A DNA stretch of 64,000 nucleotides from contig JBKBHS010000003.1 of the NCBI GenBank assembly GCA_046299555.1, forward strand, positions 268,481-332,480, written 5' to 3'. The notes beneath the pieces are model-generated. The model ran no database searches, was not told the DNA's origin, and saw nothing but the letters and a program-made list of their open reading frames with translations. The stretch's first letter is position 1, and every line of letters begins with the position of its first letter. Shown one piece after another: positions 40,764 to 43,498 of this stretch. The DNA comes from Bacteroidia bacterium. GTDB taxonomy: Bacteria > Bacteroidota > Bacteroidia > JACCXN01. The translations under genes and the position numbers were made by a program.

Positions 40764-41792
40764 TTAAATATCAAATAATGAATTTTGGCCGCTTCGAGGT
40801 AATTTCCCTAAATGTTTATATGCTTTTTCGGTAGCTTCTCTTCCACGAGGTGTACGGTGTAAATATCCTTCTTGAATCAAATAGGGTTCATAAACTTCTT
40901 CAATAGTTCCTGGTTGTTCGCCCACAGCTGTGGCAATGGTATTTAATCCAACCGGTCCTCCTTTAAACTTTTCAATTATGGCTGTTAAAATTTTATTATC
41001 CATTTCATCTAAACCATATTGATCTACATTTAATGCTTTTAAAGCAATATGGGTAATTTCCATATCAATTTTACCGGACCCTTTTATTTGGGCAAAATCG
41101 CGAACCCTTCTTAGCAATGCATTGGAAATACGCGGTGTTCCACGGCTACGGGAAGCAATTTCATAAGCTGCCTCTGCGCTAATTGGAACATTTAGTATGT
41201 ATGCCGAACGCTCAACTATGCCGGCTAAAACTTCTTTGCTGTAATATTCTAATCGAAAATTAATTCCAAATCGCGCTCTTAAGGGTGAAGTAAGTAAACC
41301 TGAACGAGTAGTTGCTCCTACCAATGTAAAAGGATTTAATTGTATTTGAATGCTACGGGCATTAGGGCCTGTATCAATCATAATATCAATTTTGTAATCT
41401 TCCATGGCAGAATATAAATATTCTTCCACAACCGGACTTAAACGATGTATTTCATCAATAAACAATACATCTCCTTTTTCTAAATTAGTAAGAAGTCCTG
41501 CCAAATCACCCGGTTTATCTAATACAGGGCCCGAAGTTATTTTTATATTTACGCCTAAATCGTTGGCGATAATATGGGAGAGTGTAGTTTTTCCCAATCC
41601 CGGAGGGCCATGCAGCAATACATGATCGAGTGCCTCTTTGCGTTGCTTGGCAGCTTCCACAAAAATTTTTAAATTACTTACTATCTGCTCTTGTCCGGCA
41701 AATTCGCTGAAAGTTGAGGGACGCAATACTTTTTCCAGCTCTTTGTCGGATACAGATAAATTTTCGTTTTCAGGATTTAATGATTCGTTCAT
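40764..41792 (-). CDS. ruvB: Holliday junction branch-migration helicase RuvB
   Basis: Walker A (GPPGLGKTT), Walker B ([10 protein letters not shown]), sensor and arginine finger, and a C-terminal winged helix. 342 aa. Confidence 0.95.
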
Positions 41793-41889
41793 TATTGCAA
41801 AATTAAGAAAAACAATAGCTGAATGATGAATATTTCATTTTTGTATGGAATAATTTATTTTTAAGGATTTAAATATTTTATACACACCT

Positions 41890-42250
41890 CCAATCCCTCA
41901 CAAGATGGGAGTTTGGTTTGGAAAAATTCACTCCATCAGGAAGTTTTATTTAAGTGATTTCTCTCAAGTAGGGAGTCTGTTCGGATTAATTCTCTCATTA
42001 AGAATTTTTTATTGGGGGATTTTCTCCAAGAGAATAGTTTGAATGGGGGCATTATCTCAAGAGGGGAATAGTTTTGAGGAGTAACTCTTTTAAAATGGAG
42101 TAAAAAGGATAAAATATCTTTCTGGGAAGAGAAGAAATAAGAGGCGCAAAGCAATCTCTACAGAAGAGTATATAATTAATATACTAAAATTTTCAAAGAG
42201 AGCGGTTTTGGGTATCCTCTCCCTTTCAAGAGAAGGCAAAATTAGGGTAT
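41890..42250. repeat. Degenerate tandem repeat array, about 11 units of about 31 bp (consensus roughly tYTCTCaAGAGgggAaTAGTTTtGaGG), in the ruvB 5' leader
   Basis: Unit starts read at about 41895, 41930, 41960, 41990, 42022, 42053, 42084, 42116, 42155, 42190 and 42216. Each unit ends in a G-run. Several units form a small CTCAA/TTGAG hairpin. Confidence 0.7.
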
Positions 42251-42269
42251 CAGCACTTTTCAAAATGAA

Positions 42270-42297
42270 AATAAAAAACCCCGATTAAGTCGGGGTT
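42270..42297 (-). terminator. Rho-independent terminator of the acyl-CoA dehydrogenase gene (CCCCGAcuuaaUCGGGG plus a U-run on the minus strand)
   Basis: Perfect 6-bp GC stem followed on the minus strand by UUUUUUAUUUUC, 20 nt after the gene stop. Confidence 0.8.
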
Positions 42298-42319
42298 ATT
42301 GAATAATTTGTTTTGCTGA

Positions 42320-43498
42320 TTAGCTAAAAGCATTAAATCCGGTTATATCCATACCGGTTATTAACAAATGTATATCATGAGTACCTTCGTAAGTAATTAC
42401 CGATTCGAGATTCATCATATGACGCATGATCGGATATTCACCAGTAATACCCATACCTCCATGAATTTGGCGAGCCTCACGCGCTATATTTAATGCCATA
42501 GCTACATTATTACGTTTAGCCATTGAAATTTGTGCGGGAGTAGCTCTATTTTCGTTTTTTAATACCCCTAATCGCCAAGTTAATAATTGGGCTTTAGTAA
42601 TTTCGGTAATCATTTCAGCCAATTTTTTTTGTGTTAACTGAAATGCGCCAATTGGTTTACCAAATTGGATTCGTTCTTTAGAATATCTTAAGGCTGAATC
42701 GTAACAATCTAAAGCAGCGCCAATTGCCCCCCATGCAATGCCGTATCTTGCTGAATTAAGACAACTCAATGGACCTTTTAATCCTTTAATATTTGGGAAT
42801 ATGTTTTCTTTTGGAACTTTTACGTTATCAAACACCAGCTCACCTGTAGCACTTGCGCGCAAGCTCCATTTACCATGTGTTTCGGGAGTAGTAAAACCTT
42901 CCCATCCGCGTTCTACAATCATCCCTCTGATATCACCATTTTCATCTTTTGCCCAAACTACGGCTATATCTGCAAATGGAGCATTTGAAATCCACATTTT
43001 AGCGCCATTTAACAAATAATAATTTCCCTTATCTTTTATATTAGTGACCATACCTGCAGGGTTTGAACCATAATCAGGTTCGGTTAAACCAAAGCAACCC
43101 ATTAACTCACCTGCAGCTAATTTGGGAAGATATTTACGTTTTTGTTCTTCTGTTCCGTAAGTATAAATCGGATACATTACCAATGAACTTTGAACCGAAG
43201 CGGTAGAGCGCAATCCGCTATCGCCACGCTCCAACTCTTGCATAATTATACCATAAGATATTTGATCTAAGCCCGGACCGCCATATTCTTGCGGAATGTA
43301 TGGACCAAAAGCACCAATTTCGGCCAATCCTTTAATCCATTGTTTTGGGAATTTAGCATTTTGACATGCTTCTTCTATAATTGGAGAAACTTCCTTTTTA
43401 ACCCAAGCTCTCGCTGTTTCGCGTATTAATTTGTGTTCTTCTGTTAGAAGTTCATCCATTAAATAATAGTCGTGATGTTGGTATCTGTCAGTTGCCAT
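42320..43498 (-). CDS. Acyl-CoA dehydrogenase (glutaryl-CoA dehydrogenase-like)
   Basis: 392 aa. Carries an acyl-CoA dehydrogenase signature (GCFGLTEPDYGSNPAGMVT) and a C-terminal four-helix domain. Confidence 0.8.
   Translation of the reverse strand: MATDRYQHHDYYLMDELLTEEHKLIRETARAWVKKEVSPIIEEACQNAKFPKQWIKGLAEIGAFGPYIPQEYGGPGLDQISYGIIMQELERGDSGLRSTASVQSSLVMYPIYTYGTEEQKRKYLPKLAAGELMGCFGLTEPDYGSNPAGMVTNIKDKGNYYLLNGAKMWISNAPFADIAVVWAKDENGDIRGMIVERGWEGFTTPETHGKWSLRASATGELVFDNVKVPKENIFPNIKGLKGPLSCLNSARYGIAWGAIGAALDCYDSALRYSKERIQFGKPIGAFQLTQKKLAEMITEITKAQLLTWRLGVLKNENRATPAQISMAKRNNVAMALNIAREARQIHGGMGITGEYPIMRHMMNLESVITYEGTHDIHLLITGMDITGFNAFS

Follow-up and report, generated by a model that had tools for sequence, protein, structure and literature searches.

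A decaying tandem array upstream of ruvB in a Bacteroidia bacterium, probably the remnant of a nested-palindrome element

A tandem array in the spacer between ruvB and ACAD

We analysed a 64-kb stretch of DNA from a Bacteroidia bacterium (contig JBKBHS010000003.1; henceforth the window, with array coordinates on its forward strand), in which ruvB and the acyl-CoA (glutaryl-CoA-like) dehydrogenase gene preceding it (henceforth ACAD; homologues carry the source name glutaryl-CoA dehydrogenase) are separated by a spacer of 527 bp that holds a degenerate tandem array (Table 1). Autocorrelation by base over 41890-42250 is strongest at lag 32 (z 4.6-5.0) and rises again at 62-66, and none of 1000 dinucleotide-preserving shuffles reached the lag-32 periodicity. 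Compared with every 361-nt window of the 64 kb, this region belongs to the top 1%, and it alone among the top windows has a lag that is not a multiple of three (3n), the others being coding periodicities. Tandem Repeats Finder (TRF) reported no repeat in the spacer at default settings and a general repeat search returned weak two-copy families only; with lenient settings, TRF delivered the arrays of Table 1, which for periods of 20 or more are the best of the window, and the score of 109 was reached by none of 300 shuffles. We conclude that the spacer contains a genuine tandem array with a period of about 31-32 bp.

The units of the solid part follow the pattern TCTC..AAGAG(GGG)..GTTT..GGG(G), and the first four of them form a 63-bp dimer present in two copies. 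Further along, TRF support is limited to the two-copy array of period 35. A preliminary description of this DNA, made from the sequence alone, had counted about 11 units, of which about six are solid and the five others are faint and recognised only by eye. It correctly described a degenerate tandem array, and the search that it proposed for dispersed copies of the unit, run on the window, found none outside the array. It was also right to set the array apart from CRISPR arrays: unique spacers are lacking, the units recur every 31-32 bp, and no cas gene stands beside the array, whose neighbours are ruvB, queG, ACAD and a gene for a protein with a type IX secretion system (T9SS) tail. Its statement that a period of 31 is no helical multiple was mistaken, since 3 x 10.5 = 31.5, although nothing hinges on this.

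Table 1. Features of the ruvB-ACAD region of the window
Feature	Positions	Strand	Details
ruvB	40764-41792	minus	Pfam RuvB_N, AAA_lid_4, RuvB_C
ruvB promoter block	41795-41815	minus	-7 box TAATTTTG at 41805 to 41798, 5 nt before ATG; TAnnTTTG scan
AT-rich filler, promoter to element	41816-41881		41844-41861 is a direct repeat of 42297-42314
Left-terminus relic	41882-41890	+	ACACACCTC, 1 mismatch to consensus ACACACCCC; orthologous to exact ACACACCCC at L094:4454
First inner-hairpin relic	41895-41911	+	CCCTCACAAGATGGGAG (family CCCCTC-TCAA-GAGGGG); perfect form in L094 CCCCTCTCAAGAGGGG
Six solid tandem units, 30-34 bp	41895-42084	+	Starts 41895, 41929, 41960, 41991, 42023, 42055; TRF, shuffles, autocorrelation, alignment
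Lenient TRF array	41897-42077		Period 32, 5.8 copies, 54% matches, score 109
Lenient TRF array	41897-42031		Period 62-63, 2.1 copies, 72% matches, score 164
Lenient TRF array	41989-42074		Period 31, 2.7 copies, 74% matches, score 92
Best-preserved core, loop and hairpin right arm	42055-42070	+	TCTCAAGAGGGGAATA; exact match to TCTCAAGAGGGGA
Five faint, much eroded units	42085-42256	+	Starts 42085, 42117, 42155, 42192, 42218; by eye and unit alignment
Lenient TRF array	42207-42276		Period 35, 2.0 copies, 69% matches, score 83
Relic of ancestral 71-bp ACAD-ruvB spacer	42255-42307		Holds terminator and old promoter-box relic TCATTTTG (minus)
ACAD intrinsic terminator	42277-42297	minus	AACCCCGACTTAATCGGGGTT then T run; terminator scan; conserved in L094, L095, L098
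ACAD	42320-43498	minus	Pfam Acyl-CoA_dh_N, _M, _1

Several other identities were considered for the array. The 72-aa open reading frame (ORF) at 41936-42154, which had been taken for the only one through the repeats, is not alone in overlapping the array: the plus strand has one of 45 aa there and the minus strand one of 57 aa. None of the three matches Pfam and the 72-aa product has no homologue among 1.84 billion (1.84e9) representative proteins, in agreement with the earlier view that the region is non-coding, and a small protein was discarded as an explanation on these grounds. The 45-aa ORF, which crosses the array at 41905-42042 (+), encodes the hydrophobic peptide MGVWFGKIHSIRKFYLSDFSQVGSLFGLILSLRIFYWGIFSKRIV. 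A replication origin was dismissed as well, there being no switch of GC skew in the window. BLAST of the spacer returned nothing from plasmids and, from phages, only an AT-rich chance match in Lak phages, and a scan of viral contigs with the unit consensus gave no match.

Spacers of relatives and the ancestral site

All contigs that encode an identical RuvB or ACAD protein have a spacer 100% identical to that of the window and thus represent one strain. The ACAD protein, being about 92% identical across much of Bacteroidia, proved useless as an anchor, and syntenic relatives were found by a word-index protein search with the fast-evolving T9SS-tail neighbour (an earlier metagenome protein scan with the T9SS-tail query had come back empty). 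Two of these relatives (L095 and L098), with about 82-84% nucleotide identity to the window in ruvB and ACAD and the same synteny, have a spacer of 71 bp, where the terminator runs straight up to the promoter box, and no array. A sister species (L094, 94% nucleotide identity to the window) has a spacer of 379 bp with the same unit family, in clearer but fewer units. Among 80 Bacteroidota ruvB loci from GTDB, the upstream gap has a median of 114 bp and none has a similar array. The preliminary description had asked whether close relatives share the unit or have an ordinary spacer, and the answer is divided: the unit family is kept in the sister species at another copy number, and the two relatives with 71 bp are without it.

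Between the window and the sister species, identity differs by segment: it is 92% in the promoter flank, 83% at third codon positions, 75% in the right flank and 70% in the aligned part of the array. The array alignment has gaps of 34, 36, 14 and 65 columns, mostly unit-sized, which fall in the faint part of the array. This is the pattern of a tandem array that evolves neutrally.

The genes on either side retain their own signals. TAnnTTTG is the consensus of the Bacteroidota-type -7 box, and such a box lies 5-15 nt 5' of the ruvB ATG in the six relatives read at this place, namely the sister species, both relatives with the short spacer and three further loci (L090, L091, and L092); the promoter block of the window is matched over 21 bp in L090 and L091 and over 17 bp in L093, and L094, L095 and L098 conserve it as well. 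Since the promoter box adjoins the ruvB ATG and the array lies further upstream, the array is outside the ruvB leader. At the other end of the array, the L095 spacer aligns over its full length to the relic of the ancestral spacer, with a score of 50 that 0 of 2000 shuffles reached. The present ruvB promoter block, in turn, resembles a second copy of a segment of the ancestral spacer (52 of 2000 shuffles reach the score), an alignment of the left against the right flank has a score matched by 9 of 2000 shuffles, and the flank repeat families D1, D2, and D6 are spaced at 453-463. The array flanks 41795-41861 and 42258-42314 are colinear direct repeats of the ancestral spacer, the left copy being without the terminator hairpin. 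Altogether, the duplication of the ancestral spacer around the array covers about 20-65 bp (p about 0.005-0.03), and the flank repeats weakly suggest that about 60 bp of target or segment were duplicated when an insertion took place.

Upstream of ruvB, other relatives differ. For one with a 94% identical RuvB, two independent Logan assemblies (L090:1-128 and L091:1-148) end 128-148 bp 5' of ruvB, a shared break that may reflect a repeat there, and their upstream sequence is unalignable to the window except for the promoter block. In another locus with a 94% identical RuvB (L092:3301-4000), a 221-aa gene and cytochrome oxidase genes precede ruvB at a gap of only 34 bp; these different upstream genes mark the 5' side of ruvB as a synteny breakpoint in the group. 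We rejected a pseudogene of the 221-aa gene, which precedes ruvB in L092 and L093, as the source of the array, as tblastn found no relic of it in the spacer.

Probable origin of the array unit

The array of the sister species begins with ACACACCCC-CAA-CCCCTCTCAAGAGGGG, which forms a perfect 6-bp stem with a TCAA loop. This is the left end of a family of palindromic elements that we find elsewhere. The minimal family element is a nested palindrome of 42-46 bp in which ACACACCCC, 3-6 nt, the hairpin CCCCTC TCAA GAGGGG, another 3-6 nt and GGGGTGTGT follow one another, the 9-bp outer arms being terminal inverted repeats (a complete example is ACACACCCCCGTCCCCTCTCAAGAGGGGAGAAAGGGGTGTGT); longer composites, about 73 to 390 bp in size and holding either an insert or repeats inside, also occur. 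A profile built from 163 distinct family left ends, with neither the window nor L094 among their sources, matches L094:4452-4486 at E = 2.6e-12. The orthologous array start in the window is eroded (ACACACCTCCAATCCCTCACAAGATGGGAG), with 38 of 44 positions identical to the sister species as counted by hand from the alignment, and its left terminus is the sole match to the composite motif in the window; the motif is also absent from 819 kb of other Bacteroidota loci. The same profile finds a single place in the window with E < 0.1, the best-preserved core (E = 0.0088). A side observation concerns the left terminus: TTATACACA, at 41877-41885, fits the DnaA-box consensus TTATNCACA, a likeness that is probably coincidental because it overlaps the element terminus.

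After the first unit, the later units in the sister species and the window lack the left arm and consist of loop, right arm, linker and G-run (for example TCTTAAGAGGGG-ATTTT-GGGGCTAAC). Judged by this composition, the amplified part is the right half of the element, and the G-run that closes each unit looks like a relic of the right arm and right terminus of the element. Two earlier ideas about the G-runs, a CsrB-like small RNA (sRNA) acting as a GGA sponge and a G-quadruplex, were dropped once the unit had been traced to the right arm and terminus. The decay of the palindrome can be followed in the folding energy of single-stranded DNA, which is -15 to -17 kcal/mol for minimal intact elements (z -4.8 to -5.8), -9.7 for the first unit of the sister species and -5.3 kcal/mol for the first unit of the window (z -0.4).

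We consider it likely that the arrays of the window and the sister species are a decaying, apparently functionless remnant of a single element insertion that predates the split of the two species. One copy of the element would have landed between the terminator of ACAD and the promoter of ruvB in their common ancestor, accompanied by a duplication of the promoter/spacer segment. Its right half would then have been amplified by slippage or unequal exchange, first into units of about 31 bp and next into 63-bp dimers; the hierarchy of repeats is seen in the array itself, and the process of amplification is what we infer from it. After the split of the species, unit-sized insertions and deletions and point substitutions at a roughly neutral rate have altered the array, which has lost the potential to form hairpins; it would be without present function, with ruvB presumably transcribed from its own conserved promoter beside the ATG.

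Several points tell against this history. Left terminus and hairpin of the window are too eroded to be significant against the family profile, and the membership of the window in the family therefore rests on orthology with the sister species. The right terminus GGGGTGTGT is unrecognisable in both species, there being no minus-strand profile match near the right end, and the right side of the array in the window retains only G-runs such as GGGGTTAAT, GGGGCTAAC, and TAGGGTATC; in 76 of 93 family arrays, too, no right terminus lies within 120 nt, so that arrays do not require it. The window contains neither a second copy of the element nor a gene of the DUF559 family, which accompanies the elements elsewhere (see below), and tblastn found no DUF559 relic in the spacers of the window and the sister species, whose locus also has no DUF559 gene; the copy in the window is non-autonomous. 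That about 360 bp of apparently useless DNA persist in a compact genome is somewhat unexpected and leaves some probability for a function. Finally, the family was collected by scanning metagenomes for a pair of neighbouring cores (TCTCAAGAKGGG, 16-27 nt, TCTYAAGAKGGG), which returned 91 stretches where we estimate that one or two are expected by chance. As this pattern was drawn from the cores of the sister species, the core is shared by construction, and only the termini and the left arm are independent. Outside the search pattern, ACACNCCC lies just upstream in 61 of 93 arrays, a CCC left arm is present in 69 of 93, and GGGKGTGT follows within 120 nt downstream in 17 of 93.

The preliminary description had offered three explanations, namely a phased array of protein-binding sites, a structured leader or sRNA for ruvB, and a decayed minisatellite. 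The last came closest, given the unit-sized insertions and deletions and the roughly neutral rate, but it missed the origin of the unit in a palindromic element. If the array were a set of functional binding sites upstream of the ruvB promoter, with small TCTC..GAGA palindromes three helical turns apart that modulate or insulate ruvB, this would account for a period of 31-32 bp, close to three helical turns, for the short inverted repeat of TCTC..GAGA type in every unit and for the presence of the array in two species. The syntenic relatives with a 71-bp spacer do without it, however, and copy number and sequence differ freely from one sister species to the other, at a roughly neutral rate. 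Family arrays at unrelated loci and inside genes show this period and these units too, which assigns the period to the element and not to ruvB. We found no evidence in support of phased sites and consider them improbable. Still less probable is a structured long 5' leader or an independent sRNA that starts just after the ACAD terminator, at a second TAnnTTTG box (TAATTTTG at 42244, minus strand, with TTTG 16 nt upstream), and that works by way of small hairpins in series or of motifs rich in C or G. About 0.6 such boxes are expected by chance in the spacer, the box of the ruvB promoter stands 5 nt from the ATG, and relatives do not conserve the array. Folding of the spacer, which had been proposed as a check, is unremarkable: z is -1.1 on the ruvB strand, and the more favourable -2.25 on the plus strand includes the terminator hairpin. 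Rfam 15 has no match to the spacer at gathering score, returning only sub-threshold terminator look-alikes at E up to 10, and intact family elements have no relevant match and no model there. The elements also occur in both orientations within genes, which argues for an element that acts at the level of DNA and not for an RNA gene.

An origin on the spot, by repeated duplication of a terminator-like hairpin or of AT-rich spacer with convergence to the look of the family, could draw on the C4/G4 design of the ACAD terminator (CCCCGATTAAGTCGGGG) and on flanks that do show duplication of the ancestral spacer. Against it, the sister species carries the full 30-nt composite including the TCAA loop, with the profile match given above, and this composite is missing from the 819 kb of other Bacteroidota loci; we rate local origin as very unlikely, on a par with the leader. 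That there is no real feature, only chance similarity in an AT-rich, low-complexity spacer, might be argued from the empty default TRF run and from units that are only about 50-55% alike. We give this practically no credence, as no shuffle attained the periodicity (0 of 1000) or the TRF score (0 of 300) and clearer units stand at the same site in the sister species.

The palindrome family and its DUF559 neighbours

Inserted elements of the family are multicopy and lie in either orientation relative to host genes. The TCAA loop is present in 135 of the 163 left ends; the left terminus stands 2-8 nt from the first hairpin, and the linker is constant within an array and differs between arrays. 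Variants of the hairpin stay complementary (CTC/GAG in 284 cases, CCT/AGG in 33, TCC/GGA in 15), and half-hairpin arrays like that of the sister species occur at four other loci (L106, L121, L127, and L129). Among 83 distinct arrays, 25 lie inside long ORFs, 18 of them with a 3n period; the 40 non-coding arrays have periods of 29-39 bp, most commonly 31-32 as in the window, with 3n in only 10 of 44 period values. Source names place the hosts in Bacteroidales/Bacteroidia, Nitrospirota and, among anammox Planctomycetota, Candidatus Brocadiaceae/Jettenia, and T9SS genes on some contigs point to Bacteroidota. In IMG/VR, the composite terminus was found in 32 stretches, with 11 matches on both strands of one 44-kb contig. 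BLAST of the intact element against plasmids returned nothing.

Five of six frames are open in the consensus element, which is thereby able to colonise genes in frame. It encodes PLSRGE, HTPNPSQEG (also HTPNPSQEGN), and TPLKRG in one orientation and PLLRGVGGV (also PLLRGAGGV) and PLERG in the other, and these peptides occur in frame within RsmE, RecG, PrmC, an N6_N4 DNA methylase, a GH2 enzyme and a phage terminase. A type IIG restriction-modification enzyme of 1542 aa (DUF7149, DUF7814, Eco57I, TaqI_C) contains eight hairpins. In rsmE of L113 (5705-6631, minus), and likewise in L124, L137, and L177, several elements with C-run/G-run hairpins add about 70 residues; residues 161-250 of the L113 protein form an insertion inside the SPOUT domain relative to residues 173-191 of PDB 5vm8, and this exact protein stands on 80 contigs with the source name Nitrospirota. 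Single elements lie in frame in IMG/VR genes for the terminase large subunit (L210, L200, and L194, with a Pfam Terminase_6C match for L210; for example ...GKNTPRHPSQEGIIKND...), and further IMG/VR ORFs with elements (L216, L206, and L205) are portal-like by sequence only. Two subfamilies form in-frame tandem arrays of their own: one (L181, L132, and L145) has the arms ACACCTCCC / GGGAGGTGT, a CCCTCC..GGAGGG hairpin and the peptides GGVSKHLPYPPQGGN, and the other (L186, L112, and L104) is of a GGGQGVGS-encoding type with PSGGGQGVGSS peptides.

In the ORFs neighbouring the arrays, DUF559, a Vsr-like PD-(D/E)XK nuclease, is the commonest Pfam family (4 of 145, with three more matches to the related nuclease MTES_1575). 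DUF559 is present at 23 of the 91 loci of the array set (450 kb) and at none of the control loci including the window (819 kb) or the IMG/VR loci (271 kb). Most of the 13 free-standing DUF559 genes are bracketed by a reverse hairpin, a short linker, GGGGTGTGT and a few nt before the ATG, and by ACACACCCC, a short linker and a forward hairpin after the stop; L170 lacks an upstream GGGGTGTGT, and the variant GGGGTGGGT is found in L114, L174, and L165. The DUF559 ORF thus sits at the centre of a perfect palindrome, GGGGTGTGT|ACACACCCC, flanked by 29-bp inverted repeats. A second setting is found in type IIG genes of 1000-1540 aa with 3-15 hairpin elements in frame (L125:4744-9372, plus strand, and L181, L132, L117, L104, L112, L186, and L179), where a DUF559 module, together with the elements on either side of it, is translated in frame; it lies between what we assign from the sequence as methylase motifs X and I. 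One contig with an array and DUF559 also has a sub-threshold match to Whalefall-1 RNA (L127:13037-13091, plus strand; 28.4 bits where the gathering score is 37; E = 0.0011).

DUF559 has been grouped with Vsr and a group I intron homing endonuclease in a classification of PD-(D/E)XK nucleases (PMC3424549), and with a homing endonuclease in this fold group a homing-like or break-repair mechanism would be reasonable. The DUF559 nuclease is the best candidate for an activity that moves or amplifies the elements. A wider reading, which we hold as a serious but tentative possibility, is that the elements form an undescribed cross-phylum family of nested palindromes that expand in tandem, colonise genes and are propagated by a DUF559 nuclease encoded within their own palindrome; the nuclease gene would then be a selfish one of homing type, accompanied by its own non-autonomous satellites and able to enter proteins with no need for splicing. 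What counts against it is that the link to DUF559 is one of association and that the IMG/VR loci with single elements carry no DUF559.

The family can be set beside several known systems. With repetitive extragenic palindromes and the bacterial interspersed mosaic elements built from them (REP/BIME), it shares small GC-rich palindromes that are multicopy and often downstream of genes. REPs carry a GTAG or CGTC tag, are mobilised by tyrosine transposases of the RAYT group and are largely species-specific. By contrast, the family has nearly the same sequence across Bacteroidia, Nitrospirota and Brocadiaceae, and it differs further in its nested double palindrome and the lack of a GTAG/CGTC tag; no Y1 transposase is among the 25 commonest Pfam families (73 matched) of the 145 neighbouring ORFs. 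Tandem reiteration together with flanking DNA, and some copies inside ORFs, are on record for REP/BIME (PMC3733652). In-frame insertion into coding genes is a trait shared with Rickettsia palindromic elements (RPEs), although the family has no sequence similarity to them and the window carries its copy between genes. RPEs, about 100-150 bp in length, are described mainly from Rickettsia; we know of no nuclease partner and of no tandem hairpin arrays for them. Functional protein-coding genes tolerate these selfish palindromes in frame (PMC10969869).

In being non-autonomous, with terminal inverted repeats and an internal module in variable tandem number, the elements resemble modular MITEs (miniature transposable elements with inverted repeats) such as BOX. 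The pneumococcal BOX has the structure boxA-boxB(n)-boxC. In the family, no consistent short target-site duplication was seen and no parent transposase of the DDE type was found, and the termini contain a hairpin; a paper on a MITE of Thiomargarita proved unrelated. A DUF559 ORF in the centre of a palindrome recalls a homing endonuclease gene (Vsr-like/EDxHD, I-Bth0305I) in its own target, except that it stands outside any intron or intein and is simply translated in frame in the type IIG genes. Regularly spaced short palindromic repeats are also the mark of CRISPR, from which the family departs in that its spacers do not differ within an array and its period, 29-40 bp, is about half that of CRISPR. 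Tandem units, unit-sized insertions and deletions and the lack of a detectable function agree with a minisatellite or variable-number tandem repeat, whereas the unit derives from a dispersed cross-phylum element. By its termini, nested design, cross-phylum sequence and DUF559 link, the family stands apart and is probably undescribed. A search of Rfam and a non-exhaustive one of the literature (motif, variants, peptides, DUF559, in-frame palindromes) found no description of it, as the preliminary description, aware of no such element in Bacteroidota, had supposed.

For the locus itself, the result is deflationary: the long region upstream of ruvB would be the leftover of a mobile element and not a regulator. 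If DUF559 drives the elements, a very common nuclease domain of unknown function would gain a function. In that case many odd low-complexity inserts and 'repeat proteins' in metagenome annotations would also be explained, and the RPE phenomenon would extend far beyond Rickettsia. Apart from the array, the window has a single Rfam hit at gathering score, a SAM (S-adenosylmethionine) riboswitch (RF00162) at 288-440 on the minus strand (65.5 bits, E = 5.5e-13).

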